Of a stretch of 64,000 bases of DNA, positions 37,758 to 50,603 are shown piece after piece (the first letter of the stretch is position 1; every line of letters begins with the position of its first letter). Below the pieces are notes generated by a model. That model saw only the letters and a list, made by a program, of their open reading frames with translations. It had not been told where the DNA came from and searched no databases. Both the position numbers and the translations under genes were made by a program. This stretch comes from a virus (taxonomy: Duplodnaviria; Caudoviricetes): positions 1 to 64,000 of the IMG/VR virus record IMGVR_UViG_3300027776_000002, one strand, 5' to 3'.

Positions 37758-40700
37758 TCAATTCACAAGATTCCACCATGGGTTAAGTGTCGGTGCACGA
37801 AGCGCCATGCCCGGACCCATCGACCAACCAAGCGAACCATCAATAGTCTTCATGATGATGTTGTCCTCAAATGGCAGATCGATTCCGTCAATTGGAACAG
37901 GCATCATCGAAGTCATTAAAGCATGTACCGGATTGTTTCGGATCATGCTCAATGCCACCTTGGAAATACGGATCTTGTAATTGTAGAACCACAGTAAGCC
38001 CATGTTCTCCAAGTACGAACGGAAGCGACCAGGGAGACGGTCGTAATTCACAAACTCTTCTGTCACTCGACCCATCGCATATTCTTTCGACTTCTTCTGA
38101 CGCTTCACGAGATCATCATAGAGCACGGCCTTTGCGATGAAGTCACCGTACTGCACTGACTTCTGCAAGCCTTGAAAGAGAGCAGTGTCACGAGTGATCA
38201 ACGCATAGCGACCAGCATTGCGAACCTTCTCTGGCAGCTTGTTGACCATGCGCTCCATGTACTGCACGAGTTTGCCGGAGGTGAGTTCCAGATCTTCATT
38301 GATCATGCCAACATCGGCAATCGTACTAAACTCGCCAGCTTCAATCAGCGGCCAGATACCTAGACGTTTGTGCGAATCCGTAATCGACTGAATCTCAGCC
38401 TTCAACTTACGTTGTTCGATTGGATTCTCAGTCGCACGCAATTCTGCTTCCGCATCAATTTGACGCAAACGAGTCTTTGCAAAGCTATCAATCTCAGCCA
38501 GCTTTTTTGGCATGCTATAAGTGATGTCGAGCATAGGCACACCACGAGCCATCAGCTGGTACACATTTGACATGAAGTTGTAAACCGGAACAACCATCGA
38601 CTTCACAACAATCAATGTACGAGCATCAGCCATCAGGTTTTGAATCACCTGTTCGCTCTTCACCAGCAACTTGTAACCGTCGAGGCTGAAAGCAGCCACG
38701 AGATTCTTCACTGTGTCTTGCGTTTCCTTGGACCACTTGCTGTTGCCAGTCCAGAAGTCACCCACAGATGCAGAGCGATAGCCGATAGCATCATCGAGCA
38801 TATCTTTACGAACCCAGAACTGCTCACCAAACTTCTCACGGATGTAAGCGAGAGTTTCATCAGTGAACAGATTGACAGCATCTTGTTGTACTTGATTCAA
38901 CAATTTCGGATTCAGCAGATTGATATATTGTTTTTGGTTCGAGCTAGAAGCCAGCATGTCTTCGTCATACATCGCACGAAGTGCATCGATCAACTTCTCG
39001 TTGTAGATCTGACTCATACCTTCTTCGGCCTGACGACCACGCCATACACCGATTATGCGTGGAAGATTCTGAGGCGGCATGACACGCTTCCATTGAGTAG
39101 CGGAGATCGGACGTTCCATTGCCACCACTGTACCGTAGTCGTCGTACACGGGCATCAGAGCTTCTTCCGTGGCGGTCTCATTGCGCATCTGTGCAGACAG
39201 GCGACGAACTTCGGTTCGATCCGTCACTCGACCAGCCATTTGAGCAACGGTGAATCCAGTCACCGAATCAACACCACCAGCAGTGTGACGGACATTTTGC
39301 ATGATGCCCTGATTGAACATGGCTCGACCAGAGAGCGGTGCATAATAGTAGCCACGACTCGAAACACGACGTTCGGTAGAAGAACCCTTGTAGTCGGCCA
39401 CTCGGACATATCCCATCTGACGAAGTTGGGAGAAGTTTTTATCGTCCTGGACAACGAGAGACACACCCTGTTCCTGCTCACTTGGGATAAAACCTTTGTA
39501 AGCATTGATGCGAGCTTTACCCTTTGAAGATTTGCTGACTTCTTCCTTTCGCTGTCCAACCAGATAATCAAGAGTGAAGGACAGACCATCCGTTTCACTT
39601 TGAACCAAAGAAGTAATGTTGCTGCGATCGGATTGGTCAAGACCTTCGATAGCGTACAGAGTGATCAACTTGTCCAGTGCATTGATAATGTTCTTTGGAG
39701 GTGTCTTGTAACCACGACCAACAGTCTGCCCAAAGAGATTCGCAATCGAATAAGCATTGCGAAGTAGGTTCTTACCAGGGACTCCAGTATTCATGAAGTT
39801 GGCAAGTTGCTGTGCCTTCTGTTTGATCAAACCATAGTGATTCTTGTCATGAGATTGAATCAGCTGTTCCAGCTTGTTGATCTCATTGTCGAGAGTTGTT
39901 TGGTCAGAGAAGAGCTTCTGAATATCAGCATGGCTCATCGTATCCCGCAGCACTGCAAGATCCGTTTTACCCATCGCATTGAACATCGAAGCGTTCTGTT
40001 CGGGAGTGATCTTGTTAGTGAACTTGCTTATGATGATGCGAGGAGTTTCCTCACGGAACTGTTGGCGAACTTGCTGTACCATCGAGCGAGTGACCTTGAT
40101 CATGTCGTAGACCAAAGCATTCGAGTTGGTGCGACCAACCAAATCAGACATGAGCTTTTGAAGTGGCTCCCAGAGTTTCGACTTGTTGACCATCACCATA
40201 GTCTGTTCTGCAACAATAGCTCCGTTCTTCTCGGTAGCCATAGCAGCCACAAGTTTGGTGGAACGTGCAGCAAACTTGGTAAGTTCATTCTTGGCATTCT
40301 TTTCGACTTCAGTTGCTTTCTCCATCGCTATGTCGGACAGCTTTTCCATACCATCAACGACATAGGTATTCATACGATCCATAATGCCACCAGCTTTGGA
40401 AGCATACTGATCCAGAAACGTCTGCTCATCCTGAGCAACTTTCTTGACGTGTTGAATCAGATTGTCCACAGCTTGCTGGACATTCTTCGAGGAGGTATCT
40501 CCTGCGAGACGCTTAGACAGTGAATCCATCACACTATTGCTGGCGTTTTCCAACATGGCATCGAGACTACCATCAGTGTTCTTCGCCTTGTTTGGAACTT
40601 CGATCTTGCCAAGCACAGTGCGGAATTCATCGCTCACAGTTGCCAGACCCAGAAAAGCTGGGAGCAAACTGGAACGACCAACATCATCGGTGCGGATGAT

Positions 40701-43700
40701 GTGCTTACCCATCACCGAGTCGTACTTTTCCTGTGCGTAGTAACGAGCGGCTGGATCCAGGGATTCTGGATCTGCCATGAAGTCTTCGATCTTGAGATTC
40801 TTCGAGACGTGAGTGTACAACTCCTGTGCACGAGAAAGTGCATTCGGATCGATTTCAGCTTCCGTCGCCAGAGCAGTAACAATCATTCGGAAGGTAGCCG
40901 ATTCCTGCATCGTCATTGGAAAGCCGTGAGCATTCATCGACAGTGCCACGTCGATAGCAGCCATCTGAGCATCCGACACTCGAACTTGACGCAGCTTGTC
41001 TTTCAGCGACAATTTCTCATCACCAAGATAATCGAGAATCTTACGACCGAATGCAGTGCGCACACCCTTTAAGCGTTCATTGTTGCCATAGTTTGTAGAG
41101 TGAAAGAGTTCACCATCTCGATTGATCGTGGAGATAGACGGCTGCGAACGGATAATGATCCCCGAGTTGAATTGTAGATTCGATAGGAAATCATCAACAG
41201 ACTTTGGAGCAATTTTACGGCCCCAAATCATCTGCTTGATTGCCTTGATAACATCTTTCGCCATCTGAACCAAAGAAGGTACTTGTTTCTTTTTCAGAGC
41301 TTCGGTGAGCTGTTCGTTAGTCAGACCCCAGGCCATGAATTCATTGAGCGCCTTAGCTTGTGCCACGGCTTGATCCGATTCGAGATTCGAGGAAAGAATT
41401 GCTTCACGAGCACTAGTGTACGAAGAAGATTTGTCGTCGAGCGTGAGGAATTCCTCCATCATCGTTTCGAGACGAGTAATCGCAGACGTGATTTCTTTGG
41501 AATTTGGACCAAGATCTTCGCGGTTGTAATAAGCGAGCACCGTCTCATACGATGCAGCGTGCACAAGCTCATGCACCATCGTCTCTATGGTTGGGTTGAC
41601 CATGTAGATCGTGTTGTCACCAATGTTGGTCCAACCAAAGACTTCTTGGTCAGGACGTGGATTGAGACCCTTCTGTTCGATGTAAGCATCCAGCTGATCG
41701 ACAGTTCCAGAGATCACCTTGTATTGCTTCGCTGCAAGCGAACGACGGATTTCATCGAAAATGATTTTTTGTGCTTCCGTCATCGTTGGAGCGAGTTTGG
41801 TCATCGCAGTCCAGCTAAGAATACGAGCACCAGTCGAATGCAGACGACCCACCTTTTCCATTTCCGGAGTGGGTTTGGCTGGAGCAACGACTTTGATCGG
41901 AGCAACGGTAACTTCTGGATTCAACGAACCACCTTGCATGATGGTGTTATATCGTTTATTGAGTTCTGCCAGCGTTTGTTCCGAAGTGAGATTGATTGCG
42001 ATACGACCATTCTGATATGGAACAGCGGCAGCAGCCATTTGATCCAAAGAAATTGGCATCGACTGTAATGCTTCATGACGAGCATCGATAGAGTCAGCAG
42101 ACCATTTTAAATTGGCCTGCATGGCATCGATGCGTTCACGAATCTGATCCGGAGTGAACTTGGAATTTTTCGAGTCACCACGCTCCTGTGGAGTGAACAA
42201 GATACGAGTTAGCGCATCGTAGGTCTGATCATTGATAAAAGCATTGTCGAAGTTCTTCATGAAACGACTGAAGGTCTTCGACATTTCACGAAGAGGATTC
42301 CCTTTCCAACTTTCATAGACTGCTTCATTTGCTTGCAGACTATATTCCTTGATCTTGTCAAGTGGCATGTTCATACCATCGAAGATCTTCAGTGTGCCTT
42401 CGAGACCAGCTTGTGCAAGTAGCTGCATCATCATACCGTCACCCATGCCGATAGTGAGCATAGGAATAGCACGGACGCCAGCTTGCCCAGGAGCATAGAT
42501 ACTGGCCGATGCACGCATCGTATCGTCGAGTGCAGCACTGATTTCCAGATCATTGCCACGAACTTCGAGACGTTGATTAGAAGCGATCATGAAACTCTGA
42601 TCACCTGTTTGAACCAAAGGAGCAATGGTCTGCAACTTGCGCTGGATCTTCTCGATCTCAGCACGAGATAGGAATTCACCACGCTTCCAGTTTGGATCAT
42701 TAGCTTCCTTCTCAGCCAGTGCAGTATCGATAGCTTGAACGAATTGATTCTCCAAAATGATAGATTGAATCTGTGCACTGTCACGGAGAATTCCAACCGC
42801 CTTCATCAAGCGACTGCCCACTGTGTCTTCAATGCCTTGACGCATCGGCTCAACAAAGAGTTGAAGCATGTTGGCATTCATCGCTTCCAACTCCGATTGA
42901 TCGAAGGTGAAGTTGTGAGGATTGAAGGTAGTACGACGTTGGCCGAGACTTTCAAACACAAGTTCGCCCTTACTCCACACTGGCTTTTGGCGAGTGAGAG
43001 CATTGTAGGCAGATTGGAAGCGATCCATCTTGACCTGTGCATCCGGATCATTCGGAAACATAGCTTCCGAAAGCGTGATGTTCGGATTGTCGTTGCGAGC
43101 TTGGATCACTGCCGACATACGAGCGTAGATTTCAGTCGTAAGTTGCCCCACCAGCTTGCCAGCGATACCAGCAGCACCCGAACCATACACTGTGATGGTG
43201 AGAGGATTCTTAGCAATACCACGCTTCATTTCCAACGCACCATCTTCCCAAGCACGGTCTGGATTGAAAGTGACATCACTACTGAAAAGACCCATCATCG
43301 AAAGCAGCTGATTCATCTGCTCTAATACTTCAGCAGAGTTCTTCTGTTGTGCAAGTTGGCGACGTAGGAACGAGAGATTTTCACGAGTTGCATCAGTTGA
43401 TGCTTGATAGAGATCCTTCGGATCCTCAGCACGAATGTCAGCCATCGTTTGCGCATCACCGATGACCAAACCACCCTTGCGAATGTTTTTAAGCCAGTCC
43501 TGTTGGAATTCGCCAATGGTCATCAAAGCCATAGCATTGATTGGACCATTGGTCACGCCGTCAGCTTCGAGATAGATGCTCGTCGTAAACTTGGACTTGT
43601 CATCCGTGTTCTGAAGACGTGCGTAATCGACCACGGCATGTAGGCTTGCCATGGTCAGATCGGCACCAGCTTTCTTGAAAGCAGTACGAATCTGATCGAC

Positions 43701-46700
43701 TTGTTCGGAGGTGAAAGTCTCCTCGCCAGAAAGCGGATTATCGAAATCAGCTATTTTCAGCCAGTCTTGCAACATCATGATGACAGGAGCAAGTTCACCA
43801 CTGAGCATTTGATTCAGCTGTATCTGCGATGTTTCGAGCGGCAGGTTGTGCACTTTGATACCAAACGCTTGAGCCAAGCCCAGCGTATAAGCATCCCAGT
43901 TGGCATTATTTTGATTTGCCAGATCGACAGTCACACGAGTTGGTAGGAACGCTTCACGAACCAGCTTGCTGGATTGTGGGTTGTACTTGCCAAGCATCTG
44001 CATACGACCAACACGGCTCATGTTGTAGCCATATCGAATAGGGACATCATCGGCATTCTTCGACGCAGTTTCAGCGAAGTTGGTCAGGTCATATGCCACA
44101 TCCAGCATGTGATTATAAGCAGACACAACACTGGTGTTCTGTCCTTCCAGCGAAGACAGATGATTGACATTCCAGTCTTCTGGATTCTTGATCACGGTAC
44201 CGAAAAGACTCAGCAGACTCTCACGTCCCATAGCAGTAAAGAAACTTACCATTGGGCGATTGATATAAAACGGAGTTTGCTGTTCTTTTTCGAGTGCATC
44301 CTTCTGCGCCGAAGTATTTGGCACTTCAGGATTGTTCATCTGACGCTCGGCAACAGCAGGCACTTCATCACCGAAATAATTCGTGTGCTCTGGTGCGATC
44401 ATCACAGCATTTTCAATCGCATCTTGGAAGGTGCGAATCGGATCATTGTCATCGAGACGCGCAACAATGTAACGCTGGATAGTGCGATTCTCTTTAACAG
44501 AGAATTGCTCTTTTGAGATTTCAGTGGTCTCGATATTCAGCAGTCCCATGTCACGCAGGCCACGAATCATCTCTGAAGCCATTGCTTGTGGAATACCATC
44601 GACGTATGCAATATCAGCATCACGCTTGCCATTGAGACCCCAGTAGTTCGAGATCTTTTGACCCAGTGAACGAACAGCTTGCTCCATGCTCATGCCACTG
44701 GTAACACGTTCAATTATCGCAGGAGTTAGCTCATAGACTGGGATGTTCGTGATCTCAGACACATCCTGCTCATCCATATTGCTTTCGTATTGGTTCGCAG
44801 ACAGCAGCCATTGCATCGCAGCAAGACCAGCTTGCTCGATGATCTGCGTGTTGTATTGGAAGCCATCATCCGTCTGTTCAACCAGATTGAGCACCTTACC
44901 ATTACGCCAGCGATTCGCTTCGACACCATTTTCGCCAAATTTCTTTCCCTTGGTTCGCAAGAACTCTTGCAGATTGTTCTCTACATTTGAGAGAAGATGC
45001 CCAAGCGTATTGCCTTCCTGCTTATCCGACAGGAGAGTTTGGTAGGCATCAGCAGCTTCTTTGCTCAGCGTGTTGCGAGACGAACCAGTGAGGAAGGATT
45101 GCAAGCGAAGGTTTGAGGACAGAGCACGACGAACCGACGCTGCCGGAGATTCTTCGGCATACAGTCGAGTCTTTGGTTCTTGCGGGAATTGGAACGATTC
45201 TAGGAATAGATTTCGCACACCTTTGTAGAGGTTAGGAAATGCAGTTTCGATTCCAGTAGGAGCGGTTTTAGTAGAAACAACAGGAGTTGTCTCCTCAGTC
45301 TTGGAATCAAATGCTTGACGGAAAGCCTTCCCTTCTTCGGATTGATTCTGCGCATTGTTGAGTTGAGCACCTTTTGCACGAGCCATCTTGTACATGGTCG
45401 TAGCGATACCTTGACGACGAAAACCTTCATCAACAGTGACTGACTGATCCATTGAATCATCAAGCGTGTACAGCAATTCACCAACTTCCTGATCTCCCGA
45501 AAAAGCCTTGATGCTTTGTACACCAGCTACTTCCGATTCCTCGTAGCGAATTTCTGGTTTCACATTTGTCCGTACCACTTTCGATGTGGATTCGGTTTTG
45601 GTTGAAGTGGGCTTATCTTGAACATTGGTGATGGGCGCAGGTTTCGATTCCACAGTTGTAGAAGACGCGGGGATAGCGGAAACAGTAGTTTGCTCATTAC
45701 TAATGCTCTCTTGTACTGGCGTAGGAGAACGGAACTTCTGTGCAAGTTCGTCAGGGTTTCCTTGAAGTTCAGCAGCCAACGAAACAGCTTCAATCCTTGG
45801 TTGTGCGAGATCTGGAAATGTTTCAGTTAAACCGTTATATACATCGGACAAGATTTTGCCTTCAAGAGCAATTGACTGTGCTTGATCGATAGATTTTGGC
45901 GAACGAGTATTGACATACATACCATCGCGAGACTCTTTGAAATCACGTTCAGTGTTTGGTTGCAGTGCTTGATACTTCACCGGGGAAGAAGACACATTCC
46001 CTGTAGCGAAGTGTGCATTGAGTGCACCAATCTTGTTCTGCATATGCTGAACAAACTTACCGAAGTCTTCCAGTCGAGCAGCAGCAAGATCATTGTTTTT
46101 TCCACGAACAGCCGAGAGAATGCCCTGAGTGTGACCCAGAGCAGACAGTGCAATCTTGCGAAGAGGATCGTTACCAGCAACCACTTGTTCCGAAACAACA
46201 TCCTTTGCGGAACGTAGACCTTTAGCTTTGATCTCCGCTTCCATTGCCTGACGAGCACGAAGCAGCTGCGTAGATGCACGCAGGGTTGCTTGTTGTTGTG
46301 GTGTCAGTGCGATCTTGCCATTGGCAGCATGTGTGAGGATGTTCTCATTTGCTTCGAGATTGCCTCGATCCGGATGCAAACTCGAAATCACCAGTGCATT
46401 ACGGACATTCTGTTGGCCTTCAACAGTACCAAGAGATTCTTCCGTGACTGGCTTGATGTTCGCATCGACTTGATTCTTCGAGACCATCTCATTGATGGCG
46501 CGAAGTGCACGTTGTACAGATGGAGTGTTTTCGATGTCAGCAACGATAGTCTCGTACTGTTGCAGTGCTTGATTGATCTGAGGATTCTGCATAGCAACAG
46601 AATCGACAGCTGATGGGTCACTCTCCTGTAAGTTGTAGAAAGGTTCCATCAGCATATGAAGACTAGTAGCAGCACGGAGTTGATCCGCACCATCCAAACG

Positions 46701-48443
46701 TGCAACCTCCCGAGCCATACGCTGAATCGCTTCAGGACGAGAAGCCGAACCAGTAAGAATAGCCTTCTGTTCATCGGGAATCGAATTAAATTCTTCCGAG
46801 TTCGGATCGAATGCCATCGCTTGGGTCAGAGTGGAGACGTATTCCTGCGATGCAGCTTTCTCTTCCGAAGTGGCATGCGAGTTTTGGATGGCATCATTGA
46901 TAGTCGAAGCATCGAAAGTAGCAGTAGAAACATTCGCAGCAGCACGCTCCTGTATCGCTTCATCAGCGACAGGAGATGCTTTTTCCATATTGCGGATACG
47001 TTCTGCACCACGCTCAACGAGTGCATTAAAGAGTGGAACACCCTTGTCGATCAGTGGTTGAACAGCAGCCCGAGTACCACGATAGACATGCTTGGCAGCT
47101 ACGACAGATGCTTGTGCAGTAACACCAGGAGCTTGAACAGCACCAGCCGAGGTTGCACCGTACAAAGCACCTTGTGCAGTCTGTTCACCAACACCTTCAG
47201 AAAGCACACGATTTTCATCAGCATACTTTTGAGCAGCGATATTTTGAGCAAGTCCACCAGTAGTCGATTGAATGGCTTCTTCAAGCGGTTCTTTAACCAG
47301 TGTATTCGTGAGAGCCGAACCAATAGAACGAACATGAAATGGACGTTCAGCAAAACGAGTAAGTGAACCAGCAGCAACACCAATCGGAGCTTGAATGGCA
47401 GCTGCAAAAAGTGCAGATCGATTAGCGACTTGGATTCGTGCTTCTTCTGGTGTAGCACCCGCAGCGACTAATTCACGATATGTAGGAGAGTTTTCTTGCA
47501 GTTGTTCAAACGACATGCTGAGCACATCGCTGGAAGTCTGCGAATAAGCACCACCAGCTTCGAGACCAGCAGTCACCAAAGGCCATCTAGCCCATTCGGC
47601 AGCAGTACCCAACCGACCAGTATTAGCAATACCCAAGGACTTCATGGCAGCCCCACCAATGAGCTTCAGCCCCTTGGAGATAGGACCACCAGCCAGAAAC
47701 GAACCACCCGCCTCAGCAGTTCCTTGAGCAAGCATGGTGGAGTTCTGCGCAGAATTCGCAAGAGTATCGACAGTATCTCGGCCCCAACGACGAAGATCAG
47801 CAACAATTTCCGAACTACCATCTTCGATTTCGTTTTCGCGCTTCAGCGTATTATCACGATAATCGAGAGACGATTGTGCACGCTGAACACGACGAGCAGC
47901 ATTCACACCATTAGATTGCTGTTTTTCAACCCACTGCATTCCCTGCTGAACTTTGTCACCAACCCAGGTACCAGCTTCAGCATCAACAAGACCAGTACCC
48001 AAAGCAGCAAGCCCACCAAGGCTTCCACCAAATCCAGCACCAATACCGGAAACCGTATCACCGAGAATTTGTGGACCCGTTCGGTTGTTCGACTGAAGAA
48101 TATCTTTGAAGAATTGCGTTCCAGCACCAGCTTGATCATTCAACAAATCAACAGCCGAAGATCCGTACTTCAAATACAGATCAAGAGGCTGCATAGTCCG
48201 AAGATCAGTCTCCAATGGAGACATACTTTGCACACCAAGTTGGTTTCCCTGCCCAGCAGCAATTTGGTAAAAATCAGGAATACCCTGCATCGGAGAAAGT
48301 GCAACTTTCTTTTCCACAGATGCTTGCGCTACTTGGGCTTGCTTTTCGAGGAATGGATTGTTCAGGACAGGGCTAGCATCAACACCAGTTGCAGGAGTGA
48401 TGGGAGCAGCAGCCTGATCCAGAAGACGCTGGAAATCCGTCAT
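37758..48443 (-). CDS. Virion-encapsidated RNA polymerase (vRNAP, ~3561 aa)
   Basis: YNMSRVGRMQ, motif A LEADGVTNG, motif B RGIAKNPLTITVYG, motif C KIFDG; no Cys noticed on reading (an N4 vRNAP trait); likely start MTDFQ. Confidence 0.98.
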   Translation of the reverse strand: MTDFQRLLDQAAAPITPATGVDASPVLNNPFLEKQAQVAQASVEKKVALSPMQGIPDFYQIAAGQGNQLGVQSMSPLETDLRTMQPLDLYLKYGSSAVDLLNDQAGAGTQFFKDILQSNNRTGPQILGDTVSGIGAGFGGSLGGLAALGTGLVDAEAGTWVGDKVQQGMQWVEKQQSNGVNAARRVQRAQSSLDYRDNTLKRENEIEDGSSEIVADLRRWGRDTVDTLANSAQNSTMLAQGTAEAGGSFLAGGPISKGLKLIGGAAMKSLGIANTGRLGTAAEWARWPLVTAGLEAGGAYSQTSSDVLSMSFEQLQENSPTYRELVAAGATPEEARIQVANRSALFAAAIQAPIGVAAGSLTRFAERPFHVRSIGSALTNTLVKEPLEEAIQSTTGGLAQNIAAQKYADENRVLSEGVGEQTAQGALYGATSAGAVQAPGVTAQASVVAAKHVYRGTRAAVQPLIDKGVPLFNALVERGAERIRNMEKASPVADEAIQERAAANVSTATFDASTINDAIQNSHATSEEKAASQEYVSTLTQAMAFDPNSEEFNSIPDEQKAILTGSASRPEAIQRMAREVARLDGADQLRAATSLHMLMEPFYNLQESDPSAVDSVAMQNPQINQALQQYETIVADIENTPSVQRALRAINEMVSKNQVDANIKPVTEESLGTVEGQQNVRNALVISSLHPDRGNLEANENILTHAANGKIALTPQQQATLRASTQLLRARQAMEAEIKAKGLRSAKDVVSEQVVAGNDPLRKIALSALGHTQGILSAVRGKNNDLAAARLEDFGKFVQHMQNKIGALNAHFATGNVSSSPVKYQALQPNTERDFKESRDGMYVNTRSPKSIDQAQSIALEGKILSDVYNGLTETFPDLAQPRIEAVSLAAELQGNPDELAQKFRSPTPVQESISNEQTTVSAIPASSTTVESKPAPITNVQDKPTSTKTESTSKVVRTNVKPEIRYEESEVAGVQSIKAFSGDQEVGELLYTLDDSMDQSVTVDEGFRRQGIATTMYKMARAKGAQLNNAQNQSEEGKAFRQAFDSKTEETTPVVSTKTAPTGIETAFPNLYKGVRNLFLESFQFPQEPKTRLYAEESPAASVRRALSSNLRLQSFLTGSSRNTLSKEAADAYQTLLSDKQEGNTLGHLLSNVENNLQEFLRTKGKKFGENGVEANRWRNGKVLNLVEQTDDGFQYNTQIIEQAGLAAMQWLLSANQYESNMDEQDVSEITNIPVYELTPAIIERVTSGMSMEQAVRSLGQKISNYWGLNGKRDADIAYVDGIPQAMASEMIRGLRDMGLLNIETTEISKEQFSVKENRTIQRYIVARLDDNDPIRTFQDAIENAVMIAPEHTNYFGDEVPAVAERQMNNPEVPNTSAQKDALEKEQQTPFYINRPMVSFFTAMGRESLLSLFGTVIKNPEDWNVNHLSSLEGQNTSVVSAYNHMLDVAYDLTNFAETASKNADDVPIRYGYNMSRVGRMQMLGKYNPQSSKLVREAFLPTRVTVDLANQNNANWDAYTLGLAQAFGIKVHNLPLETSQIQLNQMLSGELAPVIMMLQDWLKIADFDNPLSGEETFTSEQVDQIRTAFKKAGADLTMASLHAVVDYARLQNTDDKSKFTTSIYLEADGVTNGPINAMALMTIGEFQQDWLKNIRKGGLVIGDAQTMADIRAEDPKDLYQASTDATRENLSFLRRQLAQQKNSAEVLEQMNQLLSMMGLFSSDVTFNPDRAWEDGALEMKRGIAKNPLTITVYGSGAAGIAGKLVGQLTTEIYARMSAVIQARNDNPNITLSEAMFPNDPDAQVKMDRFQSAYNALTRQKPVWSKGELVFESLGQRRTTFNPHNFTFDQSELEAMNANMLQLFVEPMRQGIEDTVGSRLMKAVGILRDSAQIQSIILENQFVQAIDTALAEKEANDPNWKRGEFLSRAEIEKIQRKLQTIAPLVQTGDQSFMIASNQRLEVRGNDLEISAALDDTMRASASIYAPGQAGVRAIPMLTIGMGDGMMMQLLAQAGLEGTLKIFDGMNMPLDKIKEYSLQANEAVYESWKGNPLREMSKTFSRFMKNFDNAFINDQTYDALTRILFTPQERGDSKNSKFTPDQIRERIDAMQANLKWSADSIDARHEALQSMPISLDQMAAAAVPYQNGRIAINLTSEQTLAELNKRYNTIMQGGSLNPEVTVAPIKVVAPAKPTPEMEKVGRLHSTGARILSWTAMTKLAPTMTEAQKIIFDEIRRSLAAKQYKVISGTVDQLDAYIEQKGLNPRPDQEVFGWTNIGDNTIYMVNPTIETMVHELVHAASYETVLAYYNREDLGPNSKEITSAITRLETMMEEFLTLDDKSSSYTSAREAILSSNLESDQAVAQAKALNEFMAWGLTNEQLTEALKKKQVPSLVQMAKDVIKAIKQMIWGRKIAPKSVDDFLSNLQFNSGIIIRSQPSISTINRDGELFHSTNYGNNERLKGVRTAFGRKILDYLGDEKLSLKDKLRQVRVSDAQMAAIDVALSMNAHGFPMTMQESATFRMIVTALATEAEIDPNALSRAQELYTHVSKNLKIEDFMADPESLDPAARYYAQEKYDSVMGKHIIRTDDVGRSSLLPAFLGLATVSDEFRTVLGKIEVPNKAKNTDGSLDAMLENASNSVMDSLSKRLAGDTSSKNVQQAVDNLIQHVKKVAQDEQTFLDQYASKAGGIMDRMNTYVVDGMEKLSDIAMEKATEVEKNAKNELTKFAARSTKLVAAMATEKNGAIVAEQTMVMVNKSKLWEPLQKLMSDLVGRTNSNALVYDMIKVTRSMVQQVRQQFREETPRIIISKFTNKITPEQNASMFNAMGKTDLAVLRDTMSHADIQKLFSDQTTLDNEINKLEQLIQSHDKNHYGLIKQKAQQLANFMNTGVPGKNLLRNAYSIANLFGQTVGRGYKTPPKNIINALDKLITLYAIEGLDQSDRSNITSLVQSETDGLSFTLDYLVGQRKEEVSKSSKGKARINAYKGFIPSEQEQGVSLVVQDDKNFSQLRQMGYVRVADYKGSSTERRVSSRGYYYAPLSGRAMFNQGIMQNVRHTAGGVDSVTGFTVAQMAGRVTDRTEVRRLSAQMRNETATEEALMPVYDDYGTVVAMERPISATQWKRVMPPQNLPRIIGVWRGRQAEEGMSQIYNEKLIDALRAMYDEDMLASSSNQKQYINLLNPKLLNQVQQDAVNLFTDETLAYIREKFGEQFWVRKDMLDDAIGYRSASVGDFWTGNSKWSKETQDTVKNLVAAFSLDGYKLLVKSEQVIQNLMADARTLIVVKSMVVPVYNFMSNVYQLMARGVPMLDITYSMPKKLAEIDSFAKTRLRQIDAEAELRATENPIEQRKLKAEIQSITDSHKRLGIWPLIEAGEFSTIADVGMINEDLELTSGKLVQYMERMVNKLPEKVRNAGRYALITRDTALFQGLQKSVQYGDFIAKAVLYDDLVKRQKKSKEYAMGRVTEEFVNYDRLPGRFRSYLENMGLLWFYNYKIRISKVALSMIRNNPVHALMTSMMPVPIDGIDLPFEDNIIMKTIDGSLGWSMGPGMALRAPTLNPWWNLVN

Positions 48444-48489
48444 GAGAGTCGTCCTGTTCAGTGGGTTAGATCGAGTGCGCAGTATAGAC

Positions 48490-48520
48490 AGAAAGCCCCG
48501 CAATGCGGGGCTTCTTTTTT
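48490..48520. terminator. Terminator-like hairpin upstream of vRNAP
   Basis: AAGCCCCGC-AAT-GCGGGGCTT with T runs on both strands. Confidence 0.65.
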
Positions 48521-50603
48521 ACTGTCGAGCCGGTCGAATGATGCGATCGATGTCGCTGTCGGTGGGGGTACGTCGAGTCTTGATCAAACCCATCAGCATA
48601 TCCATCCAGTCCTCTTCATTCGGCTTTGTCGTGTCAAAGTTTGGACGCCAGTTCGGATTTTGAGCTACCTTGGTTTGAACGGCATTCATCACAGCAGCCG
48701 CTTCTTCCACAGCAGCGCGGAAGCGTGGAAGATTAGCAGCAGCACCAGGACGAGACTGAGCATCGATCAATGCAGCTTGATATTGCTGCAACGCACTTTG
48801 ATATTTCGCTTGTGCAGCTTGCGAAACCTGCGACATTGCCCCCATCGATTCATTCGCAAGTGTACGCTGTGAAGTCTTGCCTGAGAGATAATCGTCCATC
48901 GTGGCTCGGAGATTATCATCATTGATTCGAATACCTCCTGCCAAGTTTGGAGTAATTTCATTACCTCCAAAAGCAGCAGGACCACGCCATAACTTGGAAA
49001 GAAGACCGTCCGCCTGTTCTGTATTGGCAGACATCATCGCACCAGCCATCGCTGGATTGATTCGACCCCCACTCTTGTTAACGATGTGGTTGATTTGATC
49101 CAGCAGGAATCCACGATTGGTACCAGCGAATGCACCACCCTTATCAGCAAGAGCAGTTGCTACTTGATTCGCATCACGAGAATCGGAAGCCAGATTTGCG
49201 TAATTTGCAGAAATACCAGTGGCATTGTTCTGACCAAGACGTTCTTGCAATGTACGATCCACCATATGAGCAGCAAAGTTTGCTTCTGGCCCAGTTGGAC
49301 TTGGGGCGCCAAATCGCTGGCCGTAGTCAGAAAGACGAGTGCCATTCGCATCAGCTGGATTGATCTTGCCACCACTCGTGATGAATTTTTGCACACCACC
49401 GATACCACCGAGATGCGCCATGCCACGAATCGAATCGCGATCAATAACAACACCACCAATGTTTTGACCGTAGAAACGATCCAGACCCATGTTCTTCGCT
49501 TGCTGATCAATATCAGCGAAGTGCCAATCGGCTACTTTGTCTTGTACATCTTTCCCGGATGTACGGAACTGTTCTGGTGTCATGTTTTGCGGGATGACAC
49601 CAGCACGTTTCGCATCAGCCAGACGATCCTGTCCGAATTGCAGTGCACCAAAATGACCACGCTTACCGCCAGAGCCAACTGCATTGTTTGAGGCACCATA
49701 ATTGCCACCACTTTCACTTCCAAGGAGACCAACAGATTGCGCCCATGCAGCACCGCTACTCGGACGTTGAGCAGTCTCGCCAGCAACTCCACCACTGGCA
49801 CCAGCACCACCGGAACCAAGAGGAGCATAGACATTTCCGTAACCATAATTACCGAGACCTTGCATCGCTTTGGAAAAAGCCTCGGGAGACATTTGGCCAG
49901 ACATGCGTTCCAACGCAGCACGAGCATCGGTTGGAGTAGCTGAAGTACGAAGCACTTCGATGAGCGCAGCATTCGCCTGATCGCCAGCATTGTCATTGCG
50001 AATGTTTCGGCCGAATCCGTAACGATCTTCTGTCAGTCGTTGACTCGTGACATCACGAGCAAGATCACGAGTAGCGAGTTGATCCACATCGCCAAGTACA
50101 CCAGCATATTGATCCGGGCGTAAACCTGGAATCTTCTGGAGCGTGGCAAGCGCAGTGTTCATCTGACCAGCAGCAGCCAGCGAACGAGCAGTGTTGATTG
50201 CATCCGAATTCTGATCGAGAATCTGATTACCACTAATCGTACGATCACGACCGTATTGAGTAAACGCTTGATCTTGTGCGTTATACCCACGTTGGTCAGT
50301 TTTCATTGCACGATTAACAAGCGTATCAGCATACTCACCAACACCACGCAAAGTGGCTAGCGATGCACGGCTCCCATCTGCGCCAATCACTGCATTTGGA
50401 TTGAATTGCGTTGGATCAGTAACACCTACCATCCGTTGCAGGATTGCACGATCAGCAGCTTGTGCATTCGCATTACGGATGGTATCAACCATTTCTGTTC
50501 CAGACTGCGTGGCATTACTGAGCAATTGACTCATAACGCGATAACTATCTGCAATCCCCGAAAAATTCGGAGATGCGACATTATCCCAAGTCAGTCGAGC
50601 CAT
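48519..50603 (-). CDS. Internal virion protein (N4 gp51 position) with lysozyme-like domain
   Basis: SESGGNYGASN...GHFGALQFG...MAHLGG.GG at ~49310-49750; synteny. Confidence 0.8.
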   Translation of the reverse strand: MARLTWDNVASPNFSGIADSYRVMSQLLSNATQSGTEMVDTIRNANAQAADRAILQRMVGVTDPTQFNPNAVIGADGSRASLATLRGVGEYADTLVNRAMKTDQRGYNAQDQAFTQYGRDRTISGNQILDQNSDAINTARSLAAAGQMNTALATLQKIPGLRPDQYAGVLGDVDQLATRDLARDVTSQRLTEDRYGFGRNIRNDNAGDQANAALIEVLRTSATPTDARAALERMSGQMSPEAFSKAMQGLGNYGYGNVYAPLGSGGAGASGGVAGETAQRPSSGAAWAQSVGLLGSESGGNYGASNNAVGSGGKRGHFGALQFGQDRLADAKRAGVIPQNMTPEQFRTSGKDVQDKVADWHFADIDQQAKNMGLDRFYGQNIGGVVIDRDSIRGMAHLGGIGGVQKFITSGGKINPADANGTRLSDYGQRFGAPSPTGPEANFAAHMVDRTLQERLGQNNATGISANYANLASDSRDANQVATALADKGGAFAGTNRGFLLDQINHIVNKSGGRINPAMAGAMMSANTEQADGLLSKLWRGPAAFGGNEITPNLAGGIRINDDNLRATMDDYLSGKTSQRTLANESMGAMSQVSQAAQAKYQSALQQYQAALIDAQSRPGAAANLPRFRAAVEEAAAVMNAVQTKVAQNPNWRPNFDTTKPNEEDWMDMLMGLIKTRRTPTDSDIDRIIRPARQ

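Follow-up and report, generated by a model that had tools for sequence, protein, structure and literature searches.

The window analysed here is a stretch of 64,000 nucleotides, positions 1 to 64,000 of IMG/VR virus record IMGVR_UViG_3300027776_000002 (Duplodnaviria; Caudoviricetes). Its minus strand carries a very long gene for a virion RNA polymerase (vRNAP). Inside the product, between two linkers rich in serine, threonine and proline (S/T/P), lies a module of about 90 amino acids (aa). An earlier reading made from the sequence alone, here called the sequence-only reading, had proposed that this module is a GNAT acetyltransferase-like domain inserted in the polymerase. We argue that it is very probably a GNAT-derived cargo domain. 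Catalytic acetyl transfer by the module is a separate claim, one that we place at an even chance or a shade under it. The features of the locus are these:

37761-48443, minus strand: virion RNA polymerase gene, 3561 aa from its ATG (database gene call P0127).
45573-45731, minus strand: upstream S/T/P-rich low-complexity linker, aa 925-977, 50% S/T/P, 34% identical to the orthologue on the related contig L009.
45303-45572, minus strand: mini-GNAT module, aa 978-1067, ~90 aa, predicted to have four β-strands, helix α3, a loop in place of β5 and a helix resembling α4.
45402-45419, minus strand: motif A, R1029-R-Q-G1032-I-A1034 (Q/R-x-x-G-x-G/A, the GNAT pyrophosphate-binding loop), recognised by family conservation.
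45309-45341, minus strand: motif-B-like helix, S1055-E-E-G1058-K-A-F1061-R-Q-A-F, recognised by family conservation and as helix 79-93 of the AlphaFold2 model.
45252-45302, minus strand: downstream S/T/P-rich linker, aa 1068-1084, 53% S/T/P, 25% identical to L009.
42033-44306, minus strand: polymerase core, aa 1400-2157, its extent given by the Pfam vRNAP domains PF21867, PF21624, PF21894 and PF21769.

The mechanical open reading frame on the minus strand runs over 37758-48503 with a TTG start at 48503, and the database call begins at the ATG that is its codon 21. It matches four N4 vRNAP families in Pfam with E-values of 1e-11 to 3e-71 (2.8e-71 for N4_RNAP_helical, 2.8e-46 for vRNAP_dom), and it matches PHROG 2206, 'virion RNA polymerase', at E = 0. 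The product is therefore a schitovirus-type (N4-type) virion RNA polymerase. In this region the vRNAP and its cultured relatives share only 31-36% identity. A megablast search with the region gave zero matches among phage records, which means there is no close cultured relative. The borders of the module were set by conservation among three orthologous vRNAPs. The peptide that the sequence-only reading had picked out (IKAFSGDQ...EEGKAF) is aa 998-1061 of the open reading frame, at 45321-45512 on the minus strand. Its account of the surroundings was right, since the module does lie between S/T/P-rich flanks and just before the polymerase, directly ahead of the polymerase's conserved N-terminal extension.

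Three vRNAPs carry the module: the window's own (P0127), P0128 and P0129. A word-based search of 5.8 billion proteins found no others. Between the window and P0129, which is encoded on L009, the module is 81% identical, the C-terminal domain 72%, the polymerase core 69% and the N-terminal domain 64%. The flanking linkers are 25-34% identical. Against L009 the module has a nonsynonymous divergence (dN) of 0.14 and a synonymous divergence (dS) of 0.85, for a dN/dS of about 0.16. It is under purifying selection. The module is among the best-kept parts of the vRNAP, and this argues for a selected function. A word-based homologue search with the module alone found nothing, and scans of IMG/VR found no module-bearing relatives.

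Taken alone, the module matches five GNAT families in Pfam, all below their gathering scores and all over the β4-α3 part that contains motif A. The best of these is Acetyltransf_7 (E = 0.002, 18.7 bits against a cut-off of 27), and Acetyltransf_1 gives 15.8 bits against a cut-off of 20.7. The matches span just profile positions ~10-65 of 84 or 42-91 of 116. An exhaustive phmmer search of 1.84 billion representative proteins returned 124 matches at E ≤ 1e-3, with single-domain matches reaching whole-library E-values of 1e-7 to 1e-6. About 22 of the 124 (P0015, P0016, P0024 and others) were dropped as proteins made of ~60-aa repeats without motif A. They align through repetition of 'GKAYIF..LLYTLDNP' alone and are unrelated to the module. 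As an aside on these proteins, P0015, P0016, P0024, P0081 and others are phage-like and have up to 17 tandem ~60-aa repeats ('SGKAYIF..TG.LL.TLDNPNAY.TS..D.FG'), whose sequence suggests an FG-GAP-like repeat.

With the false positives removed the family has 222 domain copies in 100 proteins. G1032 of motif A is invariant (223 of 223 aligned copies), position 1029 is R or Q in 213 and position 1034 is A or G in 220. In the motif-B-like helix T or S is found at 1055 in 207 of the 222 family copies, G at 1058 in 203 and F or W at 1061 in 176. V1024, A1000 and G1008 are also strongly kept across the family, and the window module has the consensus residue at nearly all conserved positions. The family hidden Markov model (HMM) gives the module 83 bits. 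Starting from the module, phmmer reaches P0013 at E = 5e-11 and P0072 at E = 6e-5, and both of these exceed the cut-offs of Acetyltransf_1 and Acetyltransf_7. P0003 exceeds Pfam GNAT gathering scores as well. P0072, a protein of 109 aa, has 32.8 bits on Acetyltransf_1 against the cut-off of 20.7, and the multi-copy family proteins score far higher. Compared with the PDB, a profile built from the module and 25 short homologues matches nothing but GNATs, and among them is the 93-aa minimal GNAT YjdJ. The claim that the module has a GNAT motif A is borne out by the invariant G1032 and by homologues that exceed the Pfam GNAT thresholds.

Structure prediction points the same way. AlphaFold2, run on the alignment of the module and 25 short homologues, gave a model with a pLDDT of 86 and a pTM of 0.76. 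It consists of four β-strands, one helix that follows the motif-A loop, a loop, and a helix at the end. Foldseek, a check suggested along with the original proposal, was run with this model against the PDB. GNATs were the only proteins among the matches listed (probability 0.99-1.0, E from 7e-3), and the predicted fold is GNAT-like. The top 50 of an independent VIA-wide structure search are all of GNAT fold, with Z of 7.0-9.0 and 80-92 of 95 residues aligned. A search of BFVD found phage 'NAT_SF' proteins with a TM of up to 0.76. Because of the Pfam, family-profile, AlphaFold2, Foldseek, VIA-wide and BFVD results we consider the predicted GNAT fold well supported.

It is worth considering where in the polymerase this domain sits. 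An alignment with the vRNAPs of N4, JWAlpha, Piffle, PB119, G7C and Bp4 places the module at the hypervariable junction, where the N-terminal domain meets the polymerase. One N4 study (PMC13434306) gives the N4 counterpart as a 100-residue low-complexity linker, residues 907-1006, and proposes that through it the polymerase in the cytoplasm stays attached to an N-terminal domain inserted in the membrane. The same tether is named 'linker 1' in another (PMC13492108). The window's upstream linker aligns with part of this tether. The vRNAPs of N4 and JWAlpha lack the module in the alignment and have a linker alone at the site. The module is therefore a lineage-specific insert, sporadic at a variable site. 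The sequence-only reading had not known of the domain in coliphage N4 vRNAP, and had asked whether the segment might be universal in vRNAPs. N4 indeed has the low-complexity tether alone, and the segment is not universal, being absent from N4 and JWAlpha and replaced by different inserts elsewhere.

One of those inserts is itself a GNAT. The Pokkenvirus vRNAPs (Piffle, L004:1474-1860; Pokken, L010:3001-3357; PB119, L007) have a different, fuller GNAT-like module at the site. It has a motif A (RGQGGA) and a motif B (FYESMGF) and gives sub-threshold matches to five GNAT families. A single-sequence AlphaFold2 model (pLDDT 69) has the predicted order β-β-β-α-β-α-β-β. In Foldseek this model matches the anti-CRISPR acetyltransferase AcrVA5 best (6iuf, E = 4e-4), and other GNATs come next. 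A word-based homologue search with the Pokkenvirus module found nothing. We considered a shared origin for this insert and the window module and rejected it, since the family HMM scores it at about 0 and hhalign gives a probability of 0.4%. Because the Pokkenvirus GNAT is unrelated to the window family, at least two schitovirus lineages placed a GNAT at the tether site independently. The Gamaleyaviruses G7C (L005:1156-2340) and Bp4 (L008:1156-1860) have inserts of ~100-270 aa at the same vRNAP site, and these have no Pfam match. The insert region of G7C has one module more than that of Bp4.

The module is not confined to polymerases. Its closest relatives in the family set are single-copy modules in proteins of 560-2750 aa, large podovirus ejection proteins among them, at 33-44% identity and BLAST E-values of 1e-18 to 1e-14. 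P0038 (1549 aa) is on a podovirus-like contig, after structural genes that include an 'internal virion protein' match and just before the tailspike. This is the location of T7 internal virion protein D. P0056 has an N-terminal SLT_3 lysozyme, the module and an ART-PolyVal domain. With tblastn, 14 records of T7-like enterobacterial phages have the module in gp16, annotated as 'internal virion protein D' or 'DNA ejectosome component'. EcpYZU01 gp16, for example, carries it at aa 777-867 (L001:3923-4195). The module-bearing T7-like gp16 is 1485 aa long, and T7 gp16 is about 1318 aa. Two further carriers come from BFVD: the internal virion protein of Xylella phage Cota, and a protein labelled 'large polyvalent protein associated domain'. 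The placement in the vRNAP is lineage-specific, but the module is not unique to this phage: T7-like and other podoviruses have it in their gp16-type ejection proteins.

More distant copies are found in giant proteins, in arrays of up to 12 and beside Arr-ms/ART, SprT and 2H domains. Some family members are free proteins of 100-130 aa. A PHROGs search with five large module-carrier proteins gave no matches. We conclude that the module is one of a family of domains that are incorporated, singly or arrayed, into large virion-delivered or polyvalent proteins by phages and other mobile elements.

Some observations on the carriers can be set down separately. P0003 (2387 aa), P0004 (3303 aa) and P0008 (4739 aa) have 9-12 mini-GNAT copies interspersed with other domains, and such arrays of enzyme-like domains are unusual. 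P0003 also has a GHHR motif that reads as ParB-like, and repeated 'GLNGDLP' junctions. P0013, P0029, P0054, P0074, P0092, P0093, P0113 and others begin with a common peptide, MRA-x-EF-I/V-x-E, and differ in length and C-terminal content. They may share it as a tag for targeting or packaging, or it may be a conserved N-terminal element.

Part of this picture is already established. Effector domains, GNATs included, are known in injected polyvalent proteins, and N4-like polymerases are known to be fused to ART and other effectors. Iyer, Burroughs, Anand, de Souza and Aravind (2017; PMC5512222) list GNATs among the effectors of polyvalent proteins, which confirms what the sequence-only reading had said about them. 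The same paper gives the partners of N4-like polymerases as ART, lysozyme, PBECR and metallopeptidase and does not give GNAT. One of its two polyvalent GNAT families typically neighbours ART. The window module is like these GNATs in that it lies within a very large multi-domain protein delivered with the DNA, and its relatives adjoin ART-PolyVal, SLT, SprT and ParB-like domains. Compared by description, it is unlike them in being ~90 aa long, truncated and located in the tether that leads from the N-terminal domain to the polymerase.

Hardies et al. (2016; PMC4819975) make N4 gp50 a homologue of internal virion protein (IVP) D and describe IVPs as hosts for domains bound for the cytoplasm. The cargo they name includes muralytic domains, an S-adenosylmethionine-binding methylase-like domain and the N4 polymerase, and they describe no GNAT insert in IVP-D or vRNAP. 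T7 gp16 and N4 gp50 are alike as cargo carriers, and the same mini-GNAT is present in a subset of T7-like gp16 and in the window vRNAP. Both gp16 and vRNAP are ejection proteins that reach the cytoplasm. Our search of the literature turned up no report of an acetyltransferase domain in vRNAP. Two recent N4 vRNAP structure papers do not mention an acetyltransferase, and no inserted domain is given in those of their passages on the linker that were consulted. What we add to the known theme is a mini-GNAT subfamily common to vRNAP and gp16-type ejection proteins, and a recurrent cargo slot in the vRNAP tether.

Three other small or phage-borne GNATs are useful for comparison. AcrVA5 (PDB 6IUF, a chain of 96 residues) is, like the window module, a very small GNAT of a mobile element. 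It is reported to disable host defence proteins by lysine acetylation, with Cas12a and Cas2 as its targets (PMC11021501). The family profile matches 6iuf weakly (E = 0.1), and 6iuf is not among the structural matches listed for the window model. AcrVA5 is a free, expressed protein, unlike the window module, which would be pre-packaged and tethered and ends before β6. The minimal GNATs of the YjdJ/COG2388 group (Acetyltransf_CG; PDB 5I0C and 1R57) are ~90-100 aa long and, like the module, have no α1-α2 arm. The E-value of YjdJ (5i0c) with the family profile is 6e-4, and that of the module against PF14542 is 0.048, with 14.2 bits under a cut-off of 30. The relation between YjdJ and the mini-GNAT family appears to be at the superfamily level only. 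A conserved cysteine close to the acetyl group is among the defining features of Acetyltransf_CG, whose members differ from the window module in being free-standing cellular proteins. Rac, a GNAT of phiKMV-like phages, triggers cleavage of the α subunit of host RNA polymerase (PMC7552054). The likeness drawn here is one of role: a phage GNAT with a host-protein target, in a podovirus that comes equipped with a single-subunit RNA polymerase. Unlike the module, Rac stands apart from the polymerase as a protein in its own right.

The reading that we put forward, and hold to be evenly balanced between right and wrong, is that a truncated GNAT rides as cargo in the vRNAP tether and acetylates a host protein by means of acetyl-CoA. 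The module would be inserted as cargo between the membrane-anchoring N-terminal domain and the polymerase core, would be expelled with the vRNAP and would refold in the cytoplasm. Since the vRNAP would be expelled ahead of gene expression, the module would reach the cytoplasm ready-made. Ejection of vRNAP is established for N4 (PMC13434306), and we infer the cytoplasmic location from N4. The tether would keep the module immediately beneath the inner membrane, where the DNA enters. There the conserved motif-A loop would bind acetyl-CoA, and the module would acetylate a host protein, one that if left unmodified would hinder the incoming DNA or early transcription. AcrVA5, the mini-GNAT anti-CRISPR, has been shown to work by this logic. 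We infer acetyl-CoA binding and catalysis, and likewise the target, for which the sequence-only reading had proposed a host defence or translation factor; a defence protein in that role is an analogy and not a result. Because the module's family is often built into injected phage proteins, the module is probably a ready-made host-modifying enzyme.

Three arguments favour catalysis. It is the pyrophosphate-binding loop whose residues are kept in every copy, and the accompanying domains are enzymes. Very small GNATs can be active (AcrVA5, PMC11021501), and phage GNATs act on host proteins (Rac, PMC7552054).

A number of points weigh on the other side. In the AlphaFold2 model the module is a truncated GNAT, without the α1-α2 arm and with nothing past α4 (no β6-β7). 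In full GNATs α1-α2 and β6-β7 shape the acceptor site. The β5 segment of the model is a loop of lower confidence, and the residue pair there varies. H-S is commonest in the family, N-A is found in the window module and G-D-A in the closest subfamily. We considered the H-S of the family as a universal catalytic pair and rejected it, since the position can be H, P, R, D or N. The module itself reaches no curated Pfam GNAT gathering threshold, being below the cut-off in all five families. Arrays of 10-12 copies per protein resemble binding modules more than enzymes. The reach of an enzyme that is tethered and numbers only a few copies per cell is limited. In the literature we found no biochemical data for any member of the mini-GNAT family. 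The proposal of a GNAT acetyltransferase-like domain must be amended accordingly: the module is of GNAT type and its motif A is genuine, but it is a truncated GNAT of ~90 aa and not a full domain.

A non-catalytic binding role is the main rival. One can imagine a GNAT-derived pseudoenzyme or binding module that has kept the fold, and perhaps CoA or nucleotide binding, and that sequesters a host factor or a small molecule or offers a docking site on the tether. The truncation to β1-β4, α3 and α4 fits such a module. So do the replacement of the family-typical H-S at β5, the arrays of up to 12 family copies per protein and the scores of the closest subfamily, which are under the Pfam GNAT thresholds. 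However, the strictest-kept residues over the 222 copies belong to the pyrophosphate-binding loop, with G1032 invariant, and a CoA-using enzyme needs this loop. Minimal GNATs of similar size can be active, as AcrVA5 is (PMC11021501), and the co-resident polyvalent domains are mostly enzymes (ART, SprT, 2H). We regard the pseudoenzyme as possible, though on the unlikely side.

A role in the virion or in ejection would need no host target at all. The module would be a folded 'bead' that packages, orders or anchors the vRNAP, through contacts with the portal or the ejection proteins or through the length of the tether. We think this improbable. A bare linker suffices in N4, JWAlpha and most schitoviruses, and unrelated modules are found at the same site in other lineages. 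The family also occurs as stand-alone proteins of 100-130 aa and in polyvalent proteins that are not of virion type. Against these objections one can set the place of the module in a tether between a membrane-inserting N-terminal domain and the polymerase (as PMC13434306 describes for N4), its recurrence specifically in ejection proteins (gp16-type and vRNAP) and its strong conservation. As for the idea that there is no real domain and that a GNAT-like motif arose by chance in a low-complexity linker, the direct Pfam matches are all sub-threshold and part of the raw phmmer list was made of repeat-driven false positives, but it is already refuted by the 83 bits of the family HMM, whole-library single-domain E-values near 1e-7, a confident AlphaFold2 fold, and a module better conserved than the polymerase, 81% identical where the flanking linkers are 25-34%.

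The reading of the module as acetylating cargo can be extended to the site itself. The vRNAP tether and the equivalent region of gp16-type proteins would then be a general slot for pre-made effectors, filled by lineage-specific modules, and the mini-GNAT would be an active acetyltransferase kept at the DNA entry pore, disarming by acetylation a host defence protein that comes near the incoming DNA before phage genes are expressed. The contents of the slot could be the mini-GNAT in the window, the AcrVA5-like GNAT in Pokkenvirus and uncharacterised modules in Gamaleyavirus. We offer this wider scheme tentatively and judge it rather unlikely as a whole.

One neighbouring gene should be described. 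An open reading frame of 694 aa lies directly upstream of the vRNAP gene, at 48519-50603 on the minus strand. On L009 a 681-aa gene at the matching position matches Phage_lysozyme2 (PF18013). This counterpart suggests that the 694-aa product adjoining the vRNAP is a muralytic ejection protein.

For structural work on schitoviruses the finding means that 'linker 1' is in some phages more than linker sequence. If the module is active, an anti-host enzyme would arrive with the first phage DNA and would close the period in which unexpressed DNA is exposed to defences. The vRNAP tether would in that case be a natural, swappable effector slot. The family is large, with 222 copies in the 100 sampled proteins, and is biochemically uncharacterised as far as we have found, so one assay would annotate many phage and plasmid proteins.

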